From positions 2,730,001-2,794,000 of the forward strand of contig MU053652.1 of assembly GCA_013239625.1 (NCBI GenBank): DNA of 64,000 nt, read 5' to 3'. The stretch is from Lama guanicoe. Its lineage: Eukaryota. The translations under genes were made by a program, and so were the position numbers. Below the pieces are notes generated by a model. It searched no databases, had not been told where the DNA came from, and worked only from the letters and a program-made list of their open reading frames with translations. Below, piece by piece: positions 1,182 through 54,249 of the stretch (positions are counted from its first letter, which is position 1; the number at the start of each line of letters is the position of its first letter).

Positions 1182-2020
1182 CTACAAACACATTTTTCAG
1201 CGCTTTGGTAGAATTTATAGCATCTTATTTTTTAATTAAGGGAATCCAGAGGTTACTGTATTTATAGCTCATTTCATACAATTTAACACTTTGTTCTCTG
1301 CTTGTTTCCTTATATAAAACTTGTATTTTTCTAATCTAGATCATGAACTCACTGAGGGCAGGGGTCATGTCTTGACTTCTTTTGAATCCTCTGACCAAAC
1401 ACAGAATGAAAGAGTGCAATACCAGTGGTCAAAGGGGAATGATCACAGGAGGATATCTGAAGTCCTGGGTAGCTTCTCTGCCTCTGCCCCCTTCAGCTGG
1501 GAATAAGGGCTGAAGGAAGCACATAAGCCTCTGAAAAGCAATTTCCTCATCTTAAGACTGCCCCACTTACCTTACCAGTTTGTTGGGAGGATCAAATAAG
1601 ATAACGTATGTGAAAGTATCTTGTAAATCAAGATTTGCTAGCTACTGAAATGTGAGAAATCTTCAGTAGAAGCACTTAGTAAATATCTGATTGATTTTTA
1701 ACGATAAGTTATTATCTTACCTTCTCCCCTCTATTCAGTTCCTTTAGGGGTTTTATTTCTCAGAATTTAATTTTATCTGAGTAGCAAAGCCACTCCACAT
1801 CTTCTTGAAACTGTGTAAAATGTCCCCTAGTGCATTTCACCTGGTAGTTACTTTAAAATTTGATTGAAATCTAAGCAGACCAACCAAAAAGTCACAAAGC
1901 ATGCCATGGTCACATCTATCACATAGGGCTCCTAGATCAATGCATTTGTAACCCCCTAGGATTTCAGAACCCTTCTGTGCTACATCAACGCCCTCAAATT
2001 GTACCCAAGGCAAGGATTAC

Positions 2021-2149
2021 GTATATTTCTCTATTCTAGCATGTGCTTGAGATATGAGAGTGACAGAGCATCACTCTAAGCCCAGGCCAGCTGAGAAGAA
2101 AATGAAAAACGTGACACCTTGTATGAGAAATTTTTACAAAGAGATGACA
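2021..2149 (-). pseudogene. Pseudo-exon encoding a transmembrane-like segment
   Basis: Acceptor cagtttcatag, donor TAC|gtaatc, 129 nt, phase 2-2. Reads VISL*KFLIQGVTFFIFFSAGLGLE*CSVTLISQAHARIEKY. Confidence 0.55.
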
Positions 2150-2774
2150 CTATGAAACTGACTTAGAGTTATTCACTTATCTATATTCTTTATTTTCTAT
2201 TTGTTCTTAGCAGAGGAGATGATCCCTCTGCAGTAACAGAATTCTATATGCTACATTAGAAAAATCTTTCAAACATGATTATTCCTCAAATGCTTCTGGA
2301 AGATATAGTTTAGTTGTAGAGTTTCTACTCACTTAACTGGAGAAAAAAAAATGGAGACACTGAGACATAAAATGAGTTGTATATTCTGGGGATTAGCTTA
2401 TAGAGATTTCTGACTTCTCATCTAATACTCTGGGTCTAACAACATGAAAGTAAAAAATAACTAGAGAACTGATGACTTGTTTCTGGTAAGTATTGTCATC
2501 TCTTCCTGAAATTTTTCAATTTTAGTGTTTTCAATTAATTCATGAAAGCTATGCAAGCTGATTTTTTCCCCCAGGTTTAATTATACAGTGTCAACTGCAG
2601 GGTTGAAATATTTTGTTGGCATATTGAATCCAGACCGGAGTTTTGAACTCCATTGATGAAGATATCTATGATTCTCTTTTTATAGGCCATAAAAAGAGAA
2701 ATCTCTTTTCAGAATCAAGCAATGTAGAATAGTTTTCAGAAACTTCATTTACTTTCTTTTCAAAACTTAAAAAA

Positions 2775-2867
2775 AAAAATTATTTTAATGGAAGTACTAG
2801 GGATTGAACCCAAACCTCTTTCATGCTGAGTATGCACTCTACCACTGAGCTATAGACACACTCCCCC
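2775..2867 (-). mobile_element. tRNA-derived camelid-type SINE (Vic-1-like)
   Basis: The reverse complement carries the A box tatagctcagtggtagag and the B box gggttcaatccc, plus an AT-rich tail. Confidence 0.8.
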
Positions 2868-3526
2868 TCACCAACTTTTTGTTATAGAAAATGTCAAACA
2901 TACCCCACAGGAGAAAGAATAGTAAAAATGCACCCACCTTCCATTCTTATGAACCTGTCAGTCATCCAGCTTCAACATATGGTCAACCTTGTGAAGCCTG
3001 ATATTTAATCAACATTAGTAGCCAGTCAAATTACATTCACACTAGATGCCAATAAATCTTAATGATCAAATGTGACAGATATTTATTGATATATATTTTC
3101 CTAAAATAATTTTATTTTCATCAGATACTTTTCTTTCTCAATCTCAAATCTCTCTCATTTCTCTGCGGCTGAAGTGAGCCCAGCTCCTTTTATGGTCAAT
3201 ACTAGAGGAAAAATACTTAAGAAGAGGAAGCAGTAGTAGATTTTAAATTAATTAATCTATTAATTATTCTCTTCCTATGACACTATGCCTTGCTCTCTTT
3301 GCCTAAAATGTTACAGGCAAAGAGTTACAATGGGAAAGGAAACACTTCTAGCAACAGATCTGATACTTTGTCCCTTTGCCCCAACACTATGTAACAGGTG
3401 GCAGAATGAGAAGGTCACTCCATTCTTGATACTAAAGGCAGAGAGAGTCTCAGGGACAAATATTATAATCCAGATGTTTCAAGGTGGAGACTTTCTTGTA
3501 TGTAATACGTTAACTTATTTATGTGA

Positions 3527-3558
3527 ATATATATATATTATATATATATATATATATA
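3527..3558. repeat. (TA)n microsatellite
   Basis: Seen directly; one interruption. Confidence 0.9.
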
Positions 3559-3789
3559 CAAGTTTTTGCAGAGTACAAATAGTTTGCTCTATAAAATTAT
3601 TACTCTAAGATTTATCAAAATGTATACCAATTTGTAGCCAAATCATACCCACAGGAAATCTAAAATAATAATAATTTTTAAAAAGACATAAATTAGAATG
3701 ATGAAGTTGAGTAGAAGTTATATGGCTTTAACAAAACTTTGATTTCTTCTTTTATATAGTTCCCATGGTAAAAACAGTAAAATTCCTAC

Positions 3790-4020
3790 CTAGATGGTAA
3801 CACATAACCATTTGCTCAATTTTAGGATCCTTTGATTGCTCTTGGGAACAAACGTACTGCTGTGGCATGAGGTGGAAGGCATAATTTGGAGCCAGATAAG
3901 AGGAAAAAACGCTCCTTTAACAAGTAATATATTCATGTAAATGTAAAAGTATCAAAAAAAGGCTTAATAATTTCACCAAGTAATCTAACGCTAAATTTCA
4001 TAGGCAAGTTCCTTGCAGAA
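3790..4020 (-). pseudogene. Pseudo-exon with Cys-rich (ephrin-receptor/TNFR-like) remnant
   Basis: Acceptor gtttttgacag, donor TAG|gtagga. Across frames it reads LQGTCL*NLALDYLVKLLSLF...YITC / KERFFLLSGSKLCLP / SCHSSTFVPKSNQ, ending ANGYVLPS in phase 2. Confidence 0.5.
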
Positions 4021-4964
4021 CTGTCAAAAACTTTGTACAGCTCAAGCCCTCCATAGAAAAAGGTTTTAAAACTTTTAAACCAAATGCGTTGGGGATAGCA
4101 AGCCACGAAGTATAATGCAGTGTTACTCATTACTGTTATTTGCTTTATTATTCATGGTGACTTGTTTTGCATTCAGTAAAGACTCACAGAAGTGTAATGG
4201 TGGATACTTATCATAATTCATTCCCATGTGGACTTTTAGAGTCCAGGATAATAGCTTTCCTTTGTGCTTCAGTAGTTAGACTCTGAAAGGAATCTGGAAA
4301 GTGCTGCACACAGAGGTGGCGCTCAGTCAGAACTGGGCTCATCTCCAGCTCTGCTTAAGAGAGTTCCTTGCTGTCTACGTGCTGTCTACGTGTGATATTG
4401 AAGGGAGTGAGGAAAAAACTTCCTTAATGAGTGCATGGTGCCAATAACCTTACTTCACTATGGAAGAAATAAATTGCATTTCTTCCTCAGCATGTTCACA
4501 ATGAATCTCTGCGATACAGGGATATGGTTACTCAGTCAGAAAAAAAGCATGTATTTATTGAAGGGAAGTAAGCACTTTCAACTTAACAGATAGGGGGAAA
4601 AAACTTTTAAAAAAGGATGAAGCCAGTGAACCTAAGGAAAGCAAGGGGACGGGGAGGAGGAAACAACAATAAGGTATAATAAGTTTTCTTATTCTTAATT
4701 AATAAAAAGGAATGAATAAAAATAAGTGTGTCACTAAAAATTTGAATGAGTTGCATTTCCCTTTCAAAAAACAAACTTTCAGATAAGGCTCCAAACCCAA
4801 AATTAAGCTATGTATAAGAAACTTACTTCAAATAAAGTAACAAAGGAAGTTTGAAGATAAATAATTGGGCAGACATATGTCAGGCCAATCCAGAAACATA
4901 AATAGCAATATTAATATCAAATTCCAGGCTCAAAGCATTACATAGGCACAAGAGGATGGAATGA

Positions 4965-5445
4965 ATAAAGGCACTGTAGCAAAGATTGCTAAGATGCCTA
5001 TGCAATGTCCATTCCTTGTCAGCCTTCCTAACAAAACCTCGATTTAATTTGTCATAGCAATGTATCCAGACACAAATTATTTTTCCCATCCTCTTTTACA
5101 ATTAGGGGTGGACACTAAGTTGTAAGCAGAAGTTTGTGGGTGGGGCCTGTTGAAGTCTAATCCAGTTGGAAGCTATTCCTTTCTGCCTTCTTCTTTTTCC
5201 TTCTGACTGGAATATGTATGTGATGGCTGGAGCTGCAGGAACCATCTTGCAACCATGACTGGGAGAACAAACACCACTTACTAAAGGTAGCAAAACAGAA
5301 AAACAAATGGAGCTTGTATTCCAGATGACCATGGAACCACTCTACCAGCCCTTAACTTCTTTTACCGTCGTGTTTAAGAAAAATACATTTCTATTTATTT
5401 AAGCCACTATTATTTCAGTATCATTTTTATGCAGCCAGCTCAATT
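4965..5445. mobile_element. MLT1 (ERVL-MaLR) solo LTR
   Basis: Typical MLT1 motifs: gatggctggagctgcaggaaccatcttg and tttaagccactattatttcag...tgcagcc. Confidence 0.65.
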
Positions 5446-6254
5446 TCCTGTGGTATGGGTATAAACATGAAATAATATAATACTTGTAAGCTATTAAGAA
5501 CTAAAAAACAGTGCAAATTTTTTAACATATCAAAACTACTAGAAAGACAAGCATAATTTGATAAAAATTACAGCCTTAGCAGTAGGTAGCCACCTCTTTC
5601 AAAATTTGATATATGAAGTCAAAAGCAAGTAAGACTAGAATGATATAATCTACAAGCTTATTATATATGCATGTATATATGAGTATATATGTGCATTTAG
5701 TATATAGTATAAAAACTCATAAATTTATACCTTACAAAAAGAGAATATGCAATCTTTTTATATGCGTATGGAACACTTACAAAATCAATCATGTACTTGG
5801 CCATCAAAGTTGAAAGCATATTGTGGTTTGGGTACAGAAGAAAGGTGATGGAACCAGACAGTTTGTTCTCCAGCTTGCTGGCTGTGTGACCTTGGGCGAG
5901 TTACTTAACCTTTCTGGGCTTTGTGCTTTTATCTGTAGAGTTAGGGTCATAACAGATAGAAAGTTATCTTTTATGAATATTATTATCCCTCTGGGCCTAG
6001 CATTTTCCAGCTTGATGTCCATTTACCTGCATAAAGCTGTTAATACCGTTTGTAACTAACTCTAGGCAGAGGTGCCAGGCCATCAGATGGCTGTCACTGT
6101 TTCCGTTGGGAGGGTCAGGGCAGGATAGAAGGTTAACATTTCCCCGTTTGGCCTCCACTGAGCAGTGAACACAACGCCGTCTAGCACAGTATTCCAGAGC
6201 ACCAAAAGAATGTTAAATGGATGAATTGTTACTTGCAGGAAAAGAAACAGGCAC

Positions 6255-6348
6255 CATGTTTCCAATTATTCTTCATTTCAGACAACAACTAGCTGTTTCC
6301 GTTGGCTGGCACAGTAGCTGAATGGGGAACACTATTGAGTAAACTCTG
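6255..6348 (-). pseudogene. Possible short Cys-containing pseudo-exon
   Basis: Acceptor atcctttttcag, weak donor ATG|gtgcct. Reads EFTQ*CSPFSYCASQRKQLVVV*. Confidence 0.35.
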
Positions 6349-6924
6349 CTGAAAAAGGATGAATGTGGGCCAGTGAATTTTTATGACACAGCCCTAGCTT
6401 TATTTTTGCCTATTGCTGGCAAGCTAATGAGAGGGACATTAGGAAACAATTGACAAAAATTTCATAAATAAGGCTTAAAGGACAAGAAGTATCTATGGTC
6501 ACCCAAATATAAACTTTTTGTACCAACAAGGATTATTTGTGACATAAGGCAGAACCTCTAAATTTAGCTATTGGATACAAAAAGAAAAAACATATCAATC
6601 TTTTTTAAAAAACCTCACAAAATAAAACATTTTTTAATCACAAAAGCAAAATATTGAAGTATTTATAATATTTTTAAATAGGTCAAAAAAAGACAGGATT
6701 TTCATGAGCAAGTACAGTAATATATGGAAATACATGACTATATTAATGGTATTATAAATACAACAGAAAATACAATTAATTGTATATTATAATAATTATT
6801 TCATATAAGTAAATTATAAACATACAGGCTATATAAATTATAAGTATTGAATATGTTTATATATTTTAATAAAATTAAATTTAATGGACATACTACATAA
6901 ATGAGAGACTTAAAAGTTTTATCC

Positions 6925-7058
6925 CTGAACTTAGAGGGAAAGCAGAAATGAACTGAAGATAGTAAGTTTCTTAACTCATTTCAGGTCACAAGCCATTGAT
7001 AAACTATCTGATGTCAACTGGGAATGAATGGGGTATTCATTCCTTTGCTTTTGGGGAC
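6925..7058 (-). pseudogene. Pseudo-exon directly after the Ig exon
   Basis: Acceptor gctattacag after a 127-nt intron. The phase-1 frame reads GPQKQRNEYPIHSQLTSDSLSMACDLK*VKKLTIFSSFLLSL*. The donor is not clearly preserved. Confidence 0.45.
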
Positions 7059-7185
7059 CTGTAATAGCATCAGCAGAGTAATATTTATGTGTTTGCATAT
7101 TTTTCTATGGTTTTATCTCAGACATGTTGATGTACAGATAGGTAAACTGAGGGTGGTTAATTTTTTGGTCCAAAATATTTCCTAC

Positions 7186-7543
7186 CTCTCTAGCTGTTGC
7201 TGATTTCTCTCAGCATTATCTTAGTGTATCAAATCTTCACCAATCTTCACTCTTTGCTCTCTTTAAAAAAAGGTTTTGTGTGATTGCAAAATCAGCTCCC
7301 ATTTTTCTGCTGAGAATGACCTTCTCGCCAACTTCTGCACTCATAAATATCCTTTCTCAGCTTTTGCTTAAGCTGTTGTCATTCACAGAAGCTCCATCTT
7401 CTTTCCATGTGTAAGAAAACATTAGACTCAGGAAGAAGTTTTTTCCAAGTATGGGGGTTCAGACTTAGATACAATTCAAACCATGTATTGCTTCCCAAAT
7501 GAAGATATATATAGGGTGCCCATTTATCAGGGCGGAAGATAGA
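7186..7543 (-). pseudogene. Pseudo-exon encoding a degenerate Ig-like domain
   Basis: Long polypyrimidine tract ending ctctcctccccag, donor GAG|gtagga, 358 nt. Reads PYIYLHLGSNTWFELYLSLNPHTWKKLLPESNVF, then after a frameshift YTWKEDGASVNDNSLSKS*ERIF...AITQNLFLKRAKSED. This contains an Ig C-strand W-K-x-D-G motif and an E/F-strand L-x-L-x-x-A-x-x-E-D pattern. Confidence 0.65.
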
Positions 7544-7834
7544 CTGGGGAGGAGAGACAGAGAGAAACAAAAACAGAGAGGAGAGAAGCAGAGAACAGAC
7601 TTCCTCTGTTTGAATTGTCCTAGAAGCTCAGGATCTGTACTCCTTCTGTAACCCGGTTGATTAGCACAATCCTATCTGGACTACATGAATTTTTTAAAAA
7701 TTCAGCTTGAGATAGTAATATATATTTACTGGATGGAACTGAGAAAATCAGTGTTAAGAACTACATTAAAATAATGAGGTTTTTTTTTTTTTTTGGTTTA
7801 GAAGATTTTTTTTAACAGAATTTTTTTGGAGAGT

Positions 7835-7947
7835 AATTAAATTTCATTTATTCATTTACTTTTTTCTTAATGGAGGTACTGGGGCTTAAATCCAGACTCT
7901 TGTGCATGCTAGGCATGTGCTCTACCACTGAGCTATACCCTCCCCGG
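7835..7947 (-). mobile_element. tRNA-derived camelid-type SINE (Vic-1-like)
   Basis: Reverse complement reads ggggagggtatagctcagtggtagagcacatgcctagcatgcacaagagtctggatttaagccccagtacctcc, plus an A-rich tail. Confidence 0.85.
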
Positions 7948-8148: not shown

Positions 8149-8263
8149 GTGCTCGCTTTGGTAGCACATGTACTAAAATTGGAAAGATACAGAGAAGAAG
8201 AGAAGATTAGTGTGGCCCCTTCATAAGGATGATATGCAAATTTGTGAAGTGTTCCATATTTTT
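8149..8263 (+). pseudogene. RNU6: U6 snRNA retrocopy (full length, diverged), 5' part of a U6/L1 chimera
   Basis: gtgctcgctttggtagcacatgtactaaaattggaaagatacagagaaga...gttccatattttt matches U6 end to end, with CpG decay and an 8-nt duplication next to the ACAGAGA box. No upstream PSE/TATA is evident. Confidence 0.95.
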
Positions 8264-8848
8264 CTATTTACAATAGCCAAGACATGGAAAGAACCTAAAT
8301 GTCCATCAACAGATGACTGGATAAAGAAGATATGGTATATTTATACAATGGAATACTATTCAGCCATAAAAAGAATGAAATAATGCCATTTGCAACAACA
8401 TGGATGTTTCTGGAGAATGTCATTCTAAGTGAAGTAAGCCAGAAAGAGAAAGAAAAATACCATATGAGATCGCTCACATGTGGAATTAAAAAAAAAAAGA
8501 ACATAAATACAAAACAGAAACAGATTCATAGACATAGAATACAAACTTGTGGTTGCCAAGGGGGCGGAGGGTGGGAAGGGACAGACTGGGAGTTCAGAAT
8601 TTGTAGATACTGACAGGCATATGTAGACTAGATAAACAAGATTATACTGTATAGCACAGAGAAATATATACAAGATCTTGTGGTATCTCACAGCAAAAAA
8701 AAAAAGTGACAATGAATATATGTATGTTCATATATAACTGGAAAATTGTGCTCTACACTGGAATTTGACACAACATTGTAAAATGACTATAACTCAATAA
8801 AATAAATAAATAAACACACCGCATACAAAAAAAAAAAGGAAAAAGAAA
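8264..8848 (+). mobile_element. L1 3' end (ORF2 C-terminus, 3'UTR, polyA) fused to U6
   Basis: ORF 8332 (YNGILFSHKKNEIMPFATTWMFLENVILSEVSQKEK) is L1-derived. AATAAA and an A-rich tail follow. Flanking TSD aagaaaaacaaagaa (8134-8148) and aagaaaacaaagaa (8849-8862). Confidence 0.92.
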
Positions 8849-9288
8849 AAGAAAACAAAGAAAGGGTTCTGAGGGAAATGCAACATATGAAATCAGGAAT
8901 CTTTCTTTCCATGTAATTTATAAAGTTTTTGTTTTTTGGATCTTTCTTATCTCCTGACACTTGTTTTCTCTTCACCAGGCAAAGACACCCAATATTGCCT
9001 ATTAAGAATGCCATCTGCCTCTCTGAAAAAAGACAGACAGGGTAGGGAGTGGTGATGAGGGGAAATATGGGAGATTAAAAATCTTTAAGTTTGAAGAAGA
9101 GGGAAAATGAAAACTGAAAAAAAATAAATTTAATTGTCAGTTTCTTCCTCAAACATCACTTCAGGTTACGAGATAATTTGCAGTAAAGACCTTTTTTTTT
9201 TTTTTTTTACAAACCTAACTCATATCATCATTCTAGACTCAGATGTGTCCCTCTTCCATTTATTGGTCAATAAAGAGATTCATCTCAC

Positions 9289-20289: not shown

Positions 20290-22071
20290 ATGCCTGGTCT
20301 GTGGTAGATGCTTTATAAGTATTTTATAAATAAAAATAAATAAGTATTCTAAAATCTGTCCCCACAGCATGCCAGCCTTGCTTAAACATGCTTCCCCTCT
20401 GTCTGGAACACCCCACGATAGCTCCTCCCCTCTTTTCTTTCCGTACTTCATTCAAATATCATGTCAGCAACCCTGATCACTCTATCCCTGTCCCTTGCTT
20501 GTTTCTGTTTGGAGCATTGATCACTTTCTAAAATTCAGTCTGATAATTTGCCTTTGTATCTTTTTTGTGGTCCATCAACTCCTAATGAAATGCAGGAATC
20601 TTTACCTGTTTGCTATTCAGCCCTAAGCATCTAGGATAGTGTCTGCTGCAGAGAAGGCACTCTACCATGTTTTCTGAATGAACGAAGGGACAATAGTTAC
20701 TTCCGGGCAGTGGCCCTGGGGATGGGAATGAGGTATACTTTTCCTGAACACTTCTTTCACCATTTTATATTTTACCACGTGCTTATGTTCTTCTCATAAC
20801 AATGAAAAGTGAGAAATAAAATACTGGAAATAAAAGAGGATGTGAACCCATAACAAAAAACAGTAAGACTTCAGGCATCCATGACCAGAGGAGAATTCCA
20901 CAGGAAAGTGTAAGGTTGCTCCTGCAAATCACCTTTAGACTTTAGCCCTGTGTAGAAAGTGGAATCACACCTCAGAAATGGCACACAGCCCTAATTTTGA
21001 AGCACAGCATGTACACAGGTTAGCAGAAAGTCTTAATAAGATCTCTCGTATTGTGCAATATGTGTTCTGTACCTATGGGTACAATGAGAAATTTTTCCAT
21101 GACCAAAGGCCTGTTTCCAGGCACAGTAAACAGACGCATTTGCTGAAGGTTGTTTGCCCTCTTCCACCCCTGCACCCCTGCCTGCACTGGACAGGCAGGA
21201 GGCCACAGTGCATGGGATCCCTTGGGCAGCGACAGACAGTCTGTCTCCACAGCCTGCGAATAGTGGTCTTCCTCATTCCCTCAGGCCTTCTGGAAACCCG
21301 ATAAGGTTACAGGATCCCACATAAGAGTTGGACTTCAAGTGAACTGTTCTGTAAACTTATCCCAATCAGTTGGAGGTAAAACTGTCTTCAGGGTCCCCCG
21401 ACTTCTCTATTCCGTTTCTCTCTTTCCTCCCCCTGTGTTACCACCTCTCTGCTCTCTCCTATCAGGAGAAAAACCACTGATGAGTCATTAGCTCCTTGAA
21501 TAATGTGTTACCTCTACCATGAAGTTTTGTATTTAAAAAGTGGTCAAGAGGGAAGAAATAATGATGATGATGTTCATAACGATATTAATAATACAATGAA
21601 GATGATGTTAATGAGAGCTGATGATAGCAGATATTGCTTATTGAATATTACTATTAGCCAGATATTCTGCTAAAAAGTGGATACAATTTATGTCATTTAG
21701 TCCTCCAATAATCCAATGAGGTAGGTGTTGTCATACTCACATTATAGATGAGGAATGAAAAGTCACATAATTAGTAAATGGCAGACAGAGAGTTTAGAAG
21801 AACTGTCTAAAATTGTTTGCTCTAAGGAATTTCTACATATTATTCAAATGAATGGATTCTAAGGTGGAAACTTGACCCTGTAGGGAGGGAGCTGAGGAGA
21901 GTCAATGACAGCACCCTGCAGTAGCAATGACCTTTGAGGCTTGAAACTGCAAACAATTCACTGTAGCTATGACTGCCTGGGTTCAAATCCTAACCCTGAC
22001 ACTCGAGATTACCTGAGGCAAGTCACATAATCTCTATGCTTAAGATGCTTATTAGAATTCAATAAGATGCC

Positions 22072-22172
22072 GGGGTGGGTATAGGTCAAGTGGTAGAGCG
22101 CATGTTTAGCATACGCAAGGTCCTGGGTTCAATCCCCAGTACCTCCTCCAAAAAATTAATAATAATAAAAAA
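22072..22172 (+). mobile_element. tRNA-derived camelid-type SINE (Vic-1-like)
   Basis: ggggtgggtataggtcaagtggtagagcgcatgtttagcatacgcaaggtcctgggttcaatccccagtacctcc plus A tail. TSD-like flanks agaattcaataagat and agaatgcaatgagat. Confidence 0.9.
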
Positions 22173-34718: not shown

Positions 34719-36048
34719 TGCACACGATGACTGAGCTGAAAGGCTTAACTGTCTTCAGTTTGTGATTATAGCACAGAGAGGAGAGAAAGAACAGTGGTAA
34801 ACATCTCAGATGAAGACAGTATTTTTATCTGGTGCACAGGCTAGCTAAGCTGCACAAACTGAGTTTTCAGCCGAAGATTTTTTTTTTTCACTTTACTCCA
34901 CTCAATAATCATTTACTCACTGGATATTGCTTACGGGGTAGAGTTTTCATCTAATTCTCATTTAAAGAAATTGAAAAGGAAAAACTAACTAATAATACCT
35001 CATTTGTGTATAGTGCTTGTCTCTCAAAGAAGACACTGTAACCTGTTTTATACTGTCTAATTTGCAGCAACAACACTTCTACAATGTAAATACTACTAAG
35101 GGCTATTATCATCTTACAAATTATGCATGAAAGAAACCGAGGCATGCGGGAGGGAAATGACTAGTTCAATGTCACTTCCATTTTAGAGGTGTAGTAGCTG
35201 GTTTCGTTTTCTTTTTTTAAACAATGAAGCCATGCTTTAGATAAGCCTATTTTTTAAGATGTACTTTGCCCTTAAATTTTAAGGCGAAAAATACCTTGCT
35301 TAAAGGAAATCACAAAGACCAAAATGTTCACTCTGTTCCACAGATCGAATTTCTCTCCCAAATGTAGATGAAAACTGATCAGTTCCTGACACCCAGCTCT
35401 GATTTGAATCAGCACAGTTCTCACCATCTTATGCCACACATATTACGAGTTGTTTGTGATATGCATTATGCTGCAGCCATCTTGTCATCTCAGCTGGATT
35501 TGGGAAGTACCATTACATGTGCTAATGCTGCATGTATGTAAAGTCACTGACACTTAGATGTTTGTACTAGCTTCCATTTGGGGGTGGGTAACATTTTCCT
35601 GATCTTTTCATGTATTCATTTACTCACTCATTCATTTATTCACACTCTCAAGCATTCAACCATCAATCCAGCAAACCCTGATTGTGTGCCCAAAATGTGC
35701 AAATACTACTCTGGATGTAAAAGATGAAAATAGGAAGGAGACAAAATCACTGATGTCAGGAAACTCCTAGCCCCATGAGGGAGCCAGAAGAGCAAACAAC
35801 TGTAGTTCAGTGTGGTGGGTGTGGAGACGGAGGGCACATGGAAACAGTCTGGGGAGCACAGCGAGGGGGGACTGATCTCTATCTGAGAGGGTGAGGAAGG
35901 CCTCTTAGATCTGAGCATGCCAGGAAGAAGGGGATTTGGGTGTTGCAGGTAGAGGGTGCAGCATGAGCACCTGATGCATCTGGCGAACTCCAGGGAACAT
36001 GCTATAACAGGAGGTTCTTCAATATTCCACGACTGGTTCTATTTCATA

Positions 36049-36431
36049 ATTTGGCCCACCAATTAAAGAACCTCCCACTTTCTTGACAACAGGGGGATGC
36101 TCATTACTTTACGCCTAGCTGATTTTGAGGCCCATGACATTCTCAGGGAGTCTGAGTATGCTAGGAAAAAGCTAGATGCCGATAATTTTGACACCCCATT
36201 ACATTTTTTATCGGGACCCACTTCAGAAGCAAACTTCATGTCAGAAATCTTTGGTTATTAGAATCTTTATTACTAGTGATTTCATGACTGGTATACCTGC
36301 AGTCCCTGGCAATGAGATCCTTATAGAGGTTGTAATAAAGATGGTCACTGAGATTAAGAGGATTCCTGGTATTTCTCCAATTATGTATGATTTAACATCA
36401 AAAGCCCCCAGGAACTACTGAGTAGGAGTAA
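36049..36431 (+). pseudogene. GMPS: 5'-truncated processed pseudogene of GMP synthase (C-terminal dimerisation domain)
   Basis: Across frames it reads FGPPIKEPPT / FLTTG / ADFEAHDILRES / MPIILTP / RDPLQKQTSCQKSLVIRIFITSDFMTGIPAVPGNEILIEVVIKMVTEIKRIPGISPIMYDLTSK / PGTTE*E*, matching the GMPS C-terminus (...PPGTTEWE). It is intronless, with frameshifts, a deletion and TGG>TAG. Confidence 0.93.
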
Positions 36432-37299
36432 TAAACTTCTTATTATACTAAAAAAAATTTTTTTATCGTAATCCAGGCCCTGGATGTCACCATAAATAAT
36501 TTTATAAAGGGAAATATATGGTCCTTCGGTTGTCTTCAGTTACAGAAGTAAAAACACATTCTACCAAAGTATTGTACCAAAGTGCTTTTTGAAACTCTGA
36601 CTATTTGAGGAATGTCACATAAGTTACAGCACAAAATCAAAGCTTTGGGTTGCTCTACTCAAAGTTTGTATTCTTTATATTTCATCTCCAGGGGGTGGCA
36701 GGTAAGAACAGCCTATCTACTCATCGAATATATGTAGTTGATTACTTAGTCCACCTCCAATATGGTCTTAGTATAAAATTTCTATATGGAAATACTTTCA
36801 AATACAGCATTTTCAAATGTACTACATGGGTTGGGTCAGATTTTTCCTGTTTACCTCTTCCCCACCATTCAGATTTGGTGCTGCCCAGTCTCCAAAAGCA
36901 TGACAGCCAGCCTTATAGGCTTCTTACCAGCACCCCCACACACTGGCAAGATGTTTTTGGAAGTAGTCTCTGAAAATCCTACACTCAAGTCCCTGCAGGG
37001 ACAGATCGTCCCTGAAGCCCCTGAGAAATCCTGTGTGAAGGCCTTCATGAACCAGGTCAGCAATAGTTAAAATGCAACTGCTACTGAGAACTCACATAGA
37101 ACCTTCTCTAGACTAACCCTACTGCCTTGGTAATTCTACTCTGAACTCCCTTATTGCTTCAGAAAAGCTTTGCACCACCAAATCAAATCCTTGTTTCTAT
37201 TTGGAGATTTTTAGGAGACTCTAAGAGTTCAAAATAACTAATCTATTATGGTTCCTGACCAATTATGGAGTCCTCTCTAAGACATCATTTATTCATTCA

Positions 37300-52019: not shown

Positions 52020-52520
52020 GTTCTCCCCGCCTCCCCACCTAAACCCCCTGCGCGCTCCCTTCCCAAGGCGACCACCTGCGCCGCCCCACTTACCATCTGC
52101 CCCGCGGGGAGGGCCCCCGGGGTAGCGGAGCCCTCCCTGCTCCCGGGCGGCTCTGGGGTAACTCGGTGTTTGCCTCCAGCCCTTCGCTACCGGAGAGATC
52201 AGGTTCCTCCCCTCCTCCCCCTCCAGCTCCGGCCGCCGCCGCCGCCTCCTTCTTGCATGACACAGCAGAACCGCAGCTGCTGCAGCAAGTCCCAATCATC
52301 CGCCCAGGAAGCGCCGCAACCGGGGCTCGGGAGGGGCGGAGGGAGAACCAAGCAGGGGCCACTGTCGAGGGGGATTCTTGCCCCCACTTTGCACCACACA
52401 CTCCTTTCCCAGCCCAGGGGCACCGGAACAAAATCAGGTTAAAGCCGACCAGGCCGAGCCCTGGAGGAATGCTGGGGTCTGGCGTCAGAAGGGATGGGAC
52501 CAGAGACAAGGGTGTTGGAG
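52020..52520. promoter_or_regulatory. Upstream CpG-rich promoter patch
   Basis: Abrupt GC/CpG enrichment, a (GCC)n run and GC boxes (ccccgcctcc, ccgcccc). Confidence 0.7.
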
Positions 52521-53479
52521 GAGACCCCAGTTGAGGCAGGACACTGCAGGTAAAGAAGGGGAAGAAGAGGCCGAGAAGTCGAGGGCCAGACTGTGAAGGA
52601 GAATAAAGGAGGTCAAAGAGAGGTAAGGAGGTTGAGTTGCTGAGACGGAGACCGAGCTGGGAAGGGGAGGAGGGGAAGGTGGAGTGGGAGGGAGTATTTG
52701 GGGAGGCCTGAGCTAAGAATTGGGAGGCAAGGACAGAAAGGGGGAAAGGAATGGAAGAATTACGTGTTAGATGGGAAGGTAAATATTGGGGGACATATTA
52801 AAGAATCAAAAGGGATGTAGTGGCGATCATGCATCATGGCTGATGAGGGAAACTGATGAGGTGGAAAGAGATACAGCCAAGGCAAAGCCAAAAGAAAGGA
52901 TGATCTTCCGTCCCACTCTTCAGCTTCCTGTGAAGTTTTTCATAATTCAGCCAATCCAACAGGGAGTTCTCTTTATAAATAGAAAAACATGAACTAAGAC
53001 ATAGAACGTTTAGCTTAGATTTACAGGATAAATTCCATGGTCCACACAAACTTTTAAGGCAGAGATTTGGATTTGGGGGGGGTGGGATTCAATAACACCA
53101 CTCAAAACTGATGTTACAGTTTCCACACATCACTAGACTTGACTGAGTCTTTCAAAGTGTTTGTTAAATGCTTCAGTGAAATGCTAGAAATGATGGCACA
53201 ATTAATGGTTCAAAATATAAAAAGGCACACACTTTTCACTTTTCATGCACAACGTATACATATATATGTAAATCTATATGTAATTTCTAGTGTCTAGCAC
53301 GTACACTGTGATTAAGGGGAAAATGTGTTTTTCTGATTATTTGATTTCCCATCAAACACAGACTATGCATTTTACAGCAGATCAGCTGCTTCTTACCATT
53401 TGAAAGAATGTGGTCAGAAAAGTAATGCAAAAACTGCCACTTTGGTTTTGTCTGTACCTTCCAGGTCATATCTTCGTAC

Positions 53480-53638
53480 CTCACTTCCTGACACAAACAA
53501 GTTTTTACTGTTGTCAGCAACAAAGCCCTAATATAGCTGCGGAAGAGAAAAACTGCATTGCATTTGCCTCCTGCAAGCATCATCAACACAGTTACCGGAG
53601 GAATGTAATTCCAGAAAAGCTTTAAAGCTGGTGTGATG
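53480..53638 (+). other. Putative alternative non-coding first exon A (start approximate)
   Basis: ETS motif cacttcctg near the start, repeat-free sequence, donor ATG|gtaatt. Confidence 0.45.
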
Positions 53639-53809
53639 GTAATTATGTATCAAATGCCTGATTCTATTTCTGTTATTATTGTTTTGTCATTTCTGATCTA
53701 CCCAAGAGCTGGCTGAACTCGCAGAGGGATAAATCCAGCTTTTCTTTTTGCCTTGGTAAAATTTAATCAGACCTGATAGAAAACTCATTGCTCTTGGGGA
53801 AAATAAAGT

Positions 53810-54203
53810 AGGAGCCACGAAATGTCATTTTAACAGAGCGTGGGTTTTGTGACTGTAGGAAAGGATTTAAGGACGCTCCTTCTGTTCGCTTTTCTATGTC
53901 ATGAGCAAAGGCTACACGCACGCACAGACGCCACATCTCCCGGATGCTGTGGCTCCCTTATCTGGGCTTCTGCAGCGCCAGAAGCCCCTCCGGGATGCTG
54001 CGAGGGGCTCTCGGTGGGTGGTGGTACGAACGCTGCGGCCGCCGCCGCCAGTCCTGCCGCTGCTGTTGTTGCTGCTGCAGTCACGTGGGAGCCCCTTTAA
54101 GTTTCCATAGAGAGGCCTCTCCGGTGTCACATGATGGACATGATATAATGAAACAACATTGTGGAGAGGAAAGCATTAGGGGAGCCCACGGCTACAAAAA
54201 CAA
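53810..54203 (+). other. Putative 5'UTR first exon B (start approximate)
   Basis: GCC/GCT-rich UTR-like sequence with uORFs, donor CAA|gtgagt. Confidence 0.6.
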
Positions 54204-54249
54204 GTGAGTGAGAAGAGGTGGGAGGAAGAGAAACTACGCCACCTCCCCT

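Follow-up and report, generated by a model that had tools for sequence, protein, structure and literature searches.

A Probable Unitary Pseudogene of an Ig-Bearing Surface Protein in Lama guanicoe and Its Possible Kinship with ZPBP/Sp38

Introduction

In the ZPBP proteins, an Ig domain is followed by a Cys-bearing middle region and a C-terminal Cys module. The Ig domain is split over two exons, and the Cys module carries an additional Cys pair and has an intron within it. To our knowledge, neither ZPBP1 nor ZPBP2 contains a TM helix. IZUMO1, SPACA6, and TMEM81 combine a single Ig domain with a TM segment and have a long Cys-to-Trp spacing; we know of no GCC or EGF modules in these three proteins. 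ZPBP1 is acrosomal, and its loss leads to globozoospermia (PMC6993856, PMC4492047, PMC7827414). Hezroni et al. (PMC5577775) describe lncRNAs as fossils of protein-coding genes whose loss predates the placental radiation. Among titles and abstract openings, neither a third ZPBP nor a membrane-anchored one is reported.

The minus strand of a 64-kb window of Lama guanicoe DNA (the window being the whole stretch that was analyzed) probably carries the unitary pseudogene of a surface protein with an Ig domain. The identification of this fossil gene as a third, membrane-anchored vertebrate relative of ZPBP/Sp38, taken as a whole, is the best explanation available and falls just short of an even chance. 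If the locus is the fossil of an Ig-bearing surface protein, then membership in the ZPBP family is somewhat favored; the overall kinship with ZPBP, guessed from knowledge of the family, is about evenly balanced.

Results

Candidate exons. All of the peptides quoted in the first-pass annotation were found on the minus strand at the positions given below. They are spread over three reading frames, which are interrupted by stops.

PYIYLHL, 7516-7496, minus strand
YTWKEDG, 7413-7393, minus strand
NLFLKR, 7275-7258, minus strand
KSED, 7254-7243, minus strand
PQKQRNEY, 7056-7033, minus strand
ACDL, 6993-6982, minus strand
CSPFSYC, 6331-6311, minus strand
GTCL, 4012-4001, minus strand
KLLSLF, 3973-3956, minus strand
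EYITC, 3934-3920, minus strand
KERFF, 3917-3903, minus strand
SKLCLP, 3890-3873, minus strand
SCHSSTF, 3870-3850, minus strand

Splice scores were ranked against the 4501 AGs and 3307 GTs of the minus strand with a crude matrix based on the splice-site consensus. The two ends chosen in the first-pass annotation proved to be strong splice sites, with an acceptor at 7543 (99.6th percentile) and a donor at 3790 (97.1st percentile). Three of the four strong acceptor-donor pairs of the entire minus strand fall within 1721-7543. Across the whole window, strong exon-like pairs show no excess (12 versus a null mean of 13.8). The candidate exons are as follows.

E0, 8976-9022, minus strand, speculative candidate start exon (acceptor 99.2nd, donor 94.3rd percentile)
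E1, 7186-7543, minus strand, putative Ig-like exon relic of 358 nt (acceptor 99.6th, donor 98.9th percentile)
E2, 6977-7058, minus strand, candidate exon of about 82 nt (acceptor 95.8th percentile, nearest donor 22nd)
E3, 6027-6345, minus strand, Cys-bearing candidate exon (CSPFSYC) of 319 nt (acceptor 98.8th, donor 99.2nd percentile)
E4, 3790-4050, minus strand, candidate exon (donor 97.1st percentile; 4050 is a working limit)
E5, 1841-2090, minus strand, candidate exon of 250 nt beyond the region first annotated (acceptor 99.5th, donor 96.8th percentile)
Distant first exon, 52094-52330, minus strand, non-coding candidate in a CpG island (donor ATG/GTAAGT, 99.6th percentile; upstream limit guessed)

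An ATG at 9014 in E0 opens 13 codons (MAFLIGNIGCLCL) with a weak likeness to a signal peptide. E0 ends in phase 0, compatible with the frame that opens E1, and the chance of such a phase fit is 1/3. It is possible that 52094-52330 is a distant first exon linked to E0-E5. A neighboring gene is placed at 52-57 kb. E2 is open in phase 1 (PQKQRNEY...ACDL) and has no stops in one frame, yet 53% of background segments of equal length are also open; its donor is degraded and its 3' end is uncertain. Several frames are possible for E3, none of which gave a Pfam match. No strong acceptor was found for E4 between 3990 and 4200. The GC content is higher in E1, E2, E3, and E5 than in the adjoining introns, with a value for E3 of 0.455 versus 0.26 and 0.36 in the introns on either side.

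The introns of the candidate exons are retained and the reading frames are disabled; a unitary pseudogene would also lack a live copy and have an intact ortholog in an outgroup. E1 contains at least four stops or frameshifts, and this minimum of 4 compares with a background mean of 3.45. The length of the open frames shows no gain over background, and the best P value of five candidate exons was not below 0.33. What is seen directly at the locus are these disablements, the strong splice sites, and related decayed DNA elsewhere; from the sequence motifs we infer the domain identities of the candidate exons.

Ig-like pattern of E1. The motif Y-I-Y-L-H appears at 7513-7499. In the next frame, L-N-C and Y-T-W-K-E-D-G appear at 7479-7393, 22 residues apart and with two stops between them, which corresponds to the B-strand Cys and C-strand Trp of an Ig domain in a single frame. 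This B-C pattern was equalled by 0 of 1104 background segments and by 1 of 150 permuted decoys, and P values of 0.61-0.83 were obtained for the other three exons. The Trp motif alone is present in 12 of 100 resampled windows. One of 150 resamples had it enclosed by a strong acceptor and donor, and 0 of 150 had it there together with Y-[IV]-x-L-H, with the thresholds for the resampled exon pairs placed just below the observed donor score. The Ig F-strand motif D-x-G-x-Y-x-C has no match in the six frames of the window and none past the matching stretch in nine related ORFs, and decayed E-F and F-strand patterns are at background level (274 and 797 of 2210).

The start of E1 (YIYLH) shares Y-[IV]-x-L-H with bovine ZPBP (IAM38), as seen in one printed peptide, VYVMLHQK (PMC3295773). 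Y-[IV]-x-L-H occurs twice in the window, where 2.4 are expected anywhere, and 3 of 150 resamples place it within a strong exon pair. A frameshift lies between YIYLH and the first Ig Cys of E1.

Cys module, EGF pattern, and membrane anchor. In E4, a hydrophobic stretch (3994-3938) is followed by a putative Cys module relic (3922-3844) spread across three frames. The module C-x-x-G-Y...C-x-x-C-x-x-G-S/T-Y named for ZPBP in the first-pass annotation is absent from any one frame and can be assembled only with two frameshifts; both Gly positions are changed, to Arg (CGT) and Ser (AGT). With frameshifts allowed, the GCC/Ephrin_rec_like pattern of E4 was equalled by 2 of 1106 background segments and 1 of 150 decoys, and P values of 0.44-0.92 were obtained for the other exons. 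Without frameshifts, it was matched in all of the 100 resampled windows.

E5 contains a decayed EGF-like pattern at 2065-1952, compared with C-C-x-N-G-G-x-C...C-x-C-x-x-G-[FY]-x-G-x-x-C, in which three of the six Cys are intact, two are one transition off, and one is two transversions off. The strict EGF pattern in E5 was equalled by 2 of 1106 background segments and 7 of 150 decoys (P of 0.70-0.92 in the other exons). When the position prior was removed, it was equalled or exceeded in 95 and 72 of 100 resampled windows; under a third weighting it left the top list, and window-wide it is not significant. A by-eye EGF reading of E5 in the GGYKC frame was dropped, as the scans prefer another frame. 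The Ig, Cys-module, and EGF motifs were chosen and fixed after the sequence had been read. Three unrelated patterns are each best in their own candidate exon and follow a ZPBP-like order, and therefore the fossil-gene reading is supported.

A TM anchor had also been placed between 3790 and 7543. The sole candidate there, 3994-3938, was rejected, since a type I anchor would follow the Cys module and this stretch precedes it. If the gene had an anchor, the likelier candidate is the hydrophobic 19-mer of E5 at 1922-1866 (Kyte-Doolittle mean of 1.93), which is in another frame than the EGF-like pattern; no cytoplasmic tail was recognized. On its minus strand, the AT-rich window holds 99 stop-free 19-residue stretches with a Kyte-Doolittle mean of at least 1.6.

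Profile and structure searches. The single frames of E1-E5, three 4000-codon frames, and nine related ORFs were scanned with Pfam. No Sp38, Ig, Ephrin_rec_like, or EGF match was obtained from any of these frames or ORFs, and the locus is not assigned to Sp38 here. This test has little power for the ancestral gene because the frames break every 30-50 codons. Stray rows for IgaA (E of 0.17) and Kdo_hydroxy (E of 0.056) appeared in the output.

Two low-confidence AlphaFold models of relic sequence were made, the first of which was used for a fold search, and no significant match to solved structures was obtained. The single-sequence model of the Ig-like part is all-beta with a pLDDT of 47.5. The best fold-search match to this model has a Z of 3.8 and an rmsd of 5.0 over 87 aligned residues; the entries returned were presumably mostly Ig-like. 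Foldseek returned nothing for the all-beta model at an E of 0.001. The model built from five rows is all-helix (pLDDT of 44) and contradicts the all-beta model. In the PDB sequence search nothing fell below an E of 0.055, and no Ig, EGF, or Eph chain was matched. The rows with E values of 0.055-2 (ferredoxin-2, HSP10, ankyrin, integrin, catalase-peroxidase, lymphotactin, and MRPS11) were taken as chance. IZUMO1, SPACA6, and TMEM81 are not among the PDB sequence or fold matches listed, which excludes nothing.

Relatives. A phmmer search over 1.84 billion proteins gave 13 matches, nine of which are long repeat proteins matched through a Y-x-W-K-x-D-G strand. Two of these nine were scanned and both carry Pfam Ig_3/I-set domains; the best single-repeat score against Ig proteins is 13.6 bits. 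Nine short database ORFs (36-178 aa) match E1 at 63-90% identity, and past a common site they continue in all three frames. No long or intact ortholog was found among 21 and 3084 word-index candidates. Decay seems to have affected the locus in other mammals as well, given that the ends of the related ORFs run in three frames and that the searches gave no long intact ortholog. Metagenome contigs gave 18 pattern matches, 0 of which were confirmed. An Atlas query with residues 1-78 of related ORF P0005, with the Zn-dehydrogenase families skipped, returned nothing usable.

Discussion

The ZPBP-like architecture proposed in the first-pass annotation survives in part. The position-conditioned motif statistics, together with the one printed bovine ZPBP peptide, support a decayed gene of several exons in which an Ig-like exon precedes a Cys-module exon, as in ZPBP. 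Similarity to Sp38 in profile or structure was not obtained for the single frames. Unlike ZPBP1 and ZPBP2 (Pfam Sp38, IPR010857), the putative fossil is dead, has no Sp38 match, and has no F-strand Cys. It also differs in having its Ig-like part in one 358-nt exon and a shorter Cys module, and in the addition of an EGF-like and hydrophobic exon. In the layout of a single Ig with TM and in the long Cys-to-Trp spacing it would resemble IZUMO1, SPACA6, and TMEM81, from which it differs in that we infer no four-helix bundle.

The ancestral product would have been a type I membrane glycoprotein, with a signal peptide possibly supplied by E0. E1 would encode the Ig-like domain, E2 and E3 with the beginning of E4 a Cys-bearing middle region, E4 the GCC/Ephrin_rec_like Cys module, and E5 a single EGF module and the membrane helix. 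The ZPBP domain order with an EGF-TM extension therefore makes a third, membrane-anchored ZPBP/Sp38 relative the likeliest identity. Such a protein may have served in adhesion or as a scaffold on the acrosomal or gamete membrane; a role at the gamete surface is guessed from knowledge of the family. The locus would be an intron-bearing, non-processed pseudogene in which splice sites have outlasted the coding capacity.

The fossil could instead derive from another Ig-bearing secreted or membrane protein unrelated to ZPBP, an ordinary adhesion molecule or ligand such as a receptor that combines Ig with EGF or with GCC repeats. This is unlikely. In its favor are a Trp motif of the generic I-set type, generic Ig repeats as the only informative database matches, and a Cys module in E4 that is spaced as closely as in common GCC/Ephrin_rec_like repeats. 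The ZPBP gene, with its extra Cys pair, an intron in the module, and a two-exon Ig domain, also differs from the locus. Against this origin, the order of Ig, middle region, and Cys module agrees with that of ZPBP, and Y-[IV]-x-L-H, placed before the first Cys, agrees with the one printed ZPBP peptide (PMC3295773). It is quite unlikely that the DNA was never coding, that is, that it is intergenic or holds exons of an lncRNA running divergently from a CpG island at 52-56 kb, with motifs picked by chance from six frames with free frameshifts. Every library test was blank, the open-frame signal equals background, and lone motifs are common (the Trp motif as above; C-x3-[TS][FY]-x-P seen 5 times versus a null mean of 2.7). 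Related ORF P0005 also matches intron as well as exon, and the same DNA yields chance look-alikes of MRPS11 and Zn-dehydrogenases. Set against these points are three unrelated patterns in their own splice-bounded segments, on one strand, in family order, and within 6 kb.

These look-alikes could be taken at face value, with E1 as the exon relic of a zinc-binding (MDR) dehydrogenase, E5 as an old MRPS11 retrocopy fragment, and no single gene at the locus. An Atlas comparison of E1 relative P0004 with ADH_zinc_N clusters gave a score of 0.87 with 142 of 256 features in common, but a score below 0.9 with fewer than 170 common features is a lead only. The motif [KR]x[LMV]GADx[AV]I, examined post hoc, occurs once in the window and in 0 of 100 resamples; no ADH_zinc_N match was found in Pfam, no MDR chain among the seven PDB rows, and no Rossmann motif upstream of E1. 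A frame of E5 aligns with MRPS11 residues 70-118 (E of 0.055-0.12) and competes with the EGF reading; one match at an E of 0.055 is expected across 10 PDB queries, and neither of the two remaining frames across 1649-2250 continued the MRPS11 match. This origin is barely credible, and the MRPS11 and Zn-dehydrogenase matches show how readily DNA of this kind imitates a protein family. A live, unannotated gene, intact in some mammals or broken here by assembly errors, is very improbable. The cross-species comparison is limited to E1, and P0004 has a Gly at the position of the stop in the window. However, six runs from two studies, the best of which may be the assembly's own sample, contain 0.96-1.00 of 175 sampled words from 5950-7650, and therefore the breaks in E1-E3 sit in real DNA. 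The early stops of the related ORFs in three frames and the lack of a long relative among the word-index candidates also oppose a live gene.

A broader proposal that extends the membrane-anchored ZPBP/Sp38 reading is that vertebrates once had a third ZPBP-family gene with the ancestral receptor layout of Ig, Sp38 core, Cys module, EGF, and TM, which was lost early in placentals; this is somewhat unlikely. It is just as doubtful that soluble ZPBP1 and ZPBP2 alone were left and that splicing still joins the fossil exons into an lncRNA of the reproductive tract. If this proposal is true, an unnamed intact gamete-surface receptor is expected in marsupials, monotremes, or reptiles. If the kinship holds, the locus draws attention to a membrane-bound ZPBP of non-placental vertebrates that has yet to be studied, dates its loss, and provides a testable lead to a mammalian rewiring of sperm-egg coat binding. 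If it fails, the locus is an ordinary old pseudogene or lncRNA.

The putative fossil would resemble the lncRNAs of Hezroni et al. (PMC5577775), with exons retained and coding potential gone. None of the four supplementary files of that paper, where bare gene ids could hide the locus, contains the terms ZPBP, zona, Sp38, immunoglobulin, or Izumo, and they are absent from one supplementary file of PMC10195156, whose tables may also use bare gene ids. The locus makes no protein at present and may be transcribed as a non-coding RNA. Runs with a word share below 0.2 (the lowest of the four reproductive-system RNA-labelled runs gave 0.15) and three unindexed rows were left out of the evidence. As shares of sampled words, values of 0.31, 0.24, and 0.23 were present in reproductive-system RNA-labelled runs of one study.

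Candidate Exons

The locus most likely encodes no protein now, and it is quite probably the fossil of an Ig-bearing surface-protein gene. The window is AT-rich, mammalian-type DNA. Splice sites were scored using a crude matrix derived from the splice-site consensus, and the scan provided the candidate exons E0 to E5 listed below.

Candidate exons from the splice-matrix scan
9022-8976 (-): E0, 47 nt, contains an ATG; beyond the originally annotated feature
7543-7186 (-): E1, Ig-like exon
7058-about 6977 (-): E2, with a poor donor
6345-6027 (-): E3
3' end at 3790 (-): E4, without a good acceptor
2090-1841 (-): E5, beyond the originally annotated feature

The peptides quoted in the first-pass annotation were all recovered on the minus strand, though spread over three frames and with stops included. 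Both ends of its feature are good splice sites, with an acceptor at 7543 (99.6th percentile) and a donor at 3790 (97.1st percentile). Three of the four strong acceptor-donor pairs on the minus strand fall inside 1721-7543; window-wide, such pairs are not enriched (12 versus a null mean of 13.8). The GC content of E1, E2, E3, and E5 exceeds that of their flanks; in E4 (0.364) it is nearly the same as in the intron upstream (0.359).

Domain Motifs

The Trp motif alone is found in 12 of 100 resampled windows, and the Ig F-strand motif is absent from the six frames of the window. Within a strong exon pair, the Trp motif appears in 1/150 resamples, Y-[IV]-x-L-H in 3/150, and both together in 0/150. 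The Cys module (C-x-x-G-Y...C-x-x-C-x-x-G-S/T-Y) as originally quoted exists in no single frame; two frameshifts are needed, and where the two Gly codons should stand, the sequence has CGT and AGT.

Patterns were scored against background segments and permuted decoys using a codon-distance scan with frameshifts allowed. The Ig B-C pattern in E1 beats all 1104 background segments (decoys as good, 1/150), the Cys module in E4 is equaled by 2 of 1106 (decoys, 1/150), and the strict EGF pattern in E5 by 2 of 1106 (decoys, 7/150), statistics that flatter the case because the motifs were fixed once the sequence had been read, the exons were picked by eye, and the background segments overlap. Each of these patterns gives an ordinary score in the other three exons. 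The Ig E-F pattern is equaled by 797 of 2210 background segments in a finer-step scan. When no position prior is applied, two of three weightings place the EGF site second in the window, and equally good sites are present in 95/100 and 72/100 resampled windows.

The EGF-like frame of E5, 1943-2095 (-), resembles MRPS11 residues 70-118 (~35% identity, E 0.055-0.12), with no continuation in other frames of the region; this is either a chance match or a fragment of a very old retrocopy. Another frame of E1 reads D-I-Y-E-C at 7355-7335 (-), one transition from G-I-Y-E-C and ~23 codons past the Trp. Given a deletion, it is possibly an F-strand relic, with a score not above background.

Relatives and Structure of E1

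A phmmer search of the 82-residue E1 frame against 1.84 billion proteins gave 13 matches. Nine are long repeat proteins matched via a Y-x-W-K-x-D-G strand, with E-values that add up numerous weak matches, the best of them scoring 13.6 bits for a single repeat; the two of these scanned by Pfam are both Ig proteins. The other four are short ORFs, 41-178 aa in length. Searching with a profile brought the short related ORFs up to nine (among 1702 candidates); they show 63-90% identity, are unnamed, and have no Pfam domains. One of them, P0005, is collinear with the window across the end of E1, the intron, E2, and the following intron, and the related ORFs are therefore gene-caller ORFs on orthologous genomic DNA, which we infer to come from other mammals. 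Past a common F-L-K-R site, the ORFs part into three different frames: P0012 and P0017 keep that of the window, P0005 runs on in a second, and P0018 in the third. At most one frame group can be ancestral, and thus the locus has decayed in other lineages too. No F-strand Cys occurs in the related ORFs. Screens of 21 and 3084 candidates yielded no long relative; they depend on identical words of 5 residues, so a distant ortholog from outside the placentals would escape them.

The expected profile similarity to Sp38, Ig, or Ephrin_rec_like did not materialize: Pfam returned zero rows for these or EGF in all frames and related ORFs. The best row in PDB sequence searches has an E of 0.055, and Ig, EGF, and Eph chains are absent. 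The longest E1 frame, modeled with AlphaFold from the single sequence, is all-beta (pLDDT 47.5), and the model gave no Foldseek match at E 0.001. A wide structural search with this model reached a top Z of 3.8, under the noise level of the tool; we take about 39 of its 50 rows to be Ig-like sandwiches. A second model, built from 5 rows, is all-helix (pLDDT 44). With low-pLDDT models, no Foldseek match, and Z under noise, structure is uninformative. In the Atlas, the related ORF P0004 matches Zn-dehydrogenase clusters at lead level only; with these families skipped, P0005 1-78 gives no usable match.

Sequencing Runs

All or part of 5950-7650 is contained in 20 of the 24 listed sequencing runs. 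In six unlabeled large runs from two studies, 0.96-1.00 of 175 words are present, the best run possibly being the assembly's own sample, and the breaks in E1-E3 are therefore not assembly errors. Word shares are 0.31, 0.24, 0.23, and 0.15 in four RNA-labeled reproductive-system runs from one study, and 0.67-0.17 in ten runs guessed to be RNA. Since about 0.40 of the words are expected, by arithmetic, to lie fully within E1-E3, the reproductive-system runs would fit spliced RNA, unlike the higher shares. Protein-coding fossils that persist as lncRNAs are a known kind (PMC5577775, PMC10195156).

Assignment of the Locus

That the locus was never coding is rather improbable. None of the candidate exons has stops and frameshifts below the level of background DNA, and the domain motifs taken singly are not beyond chance; taken jointly, they probably are. 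A fossil of a different Ig protein is also unlikely, at a slightly higher estimate. Neither a match to the Sp38 profile nor an F-strand Cys was found when sought, so the locus is not placed in the Sp38 family. The proposed TM anchor has no weight alone, with 99 comparable hydrophobic stretches on the minus strand. The stretch inside the original feature lies upstream of the Cys module; that in E5, after the EGF-like pattern, is better placed.

Kinship of the fossil gene with ZPBP is, overall, tentative and close to evenly balanced. The domain order is presumably that of ZPBP, as was claimed. A set of ZPBP mass-spectrometry peptides includes VYVMLHQK (PMC3295773), and E1 begins with the Y-[IV]-x-L-H motif of this peptide. 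The paper listings of a literature search contained no third or membrane-anchored ZPBP. The ancestral product would most likely have been a type I membrane glycoprotein with the order Ig, Cys-bearing middle, Cys module, EGF, and TM. If a ZPBP relative, it may, by analogy with ZPBP1, have had an adhesion or scaffold role at the acrosomal or gamete membrane; ZPBP1 is acrosomal and required in acrosome formation (PMC6993856, PMC4492047, PMC7827414). If real, the gene would add a variant to a known family.

Neighboring Elements

Elements in the window
2800-2870, 7871-7942 (-), and 22070-22150: tRNA-derived SINE copies, the one at 7871-7942 matched by Rfam tRNA
8149-8850 (+): full-length U6 copy (Rfam, 80.3 bits) with L1-like 3' sequence directly after
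~52-57 kb: CpG island

The SINEs of the window are presumably camelid. The U6 copy lies between E0 and E1 and, with its 3' sequence, which we take to be L1, resembles a U6/L1 chimeric retrocopy. An intronless, frameshifted piece of the GMP synthase C-terminal domain at 36000-36450 (+) (Pfam GMP_synt_C, E 1.9e-05) is a truncated GMPS retrocopy. The CpG-island segment 52094-52330 (-) ends in a near-perfect donor (99.6th percentile) and is likely the first exon of a divergent transcript running towards the fossil gene. At 53280-54210 (+), a stretch of ~900 nt lacks obvious repeats and precedes a donor-like site near 54206; it contains short upstream ORFs and two E-box-like sites and resembles a long 5' UTR of some gene.
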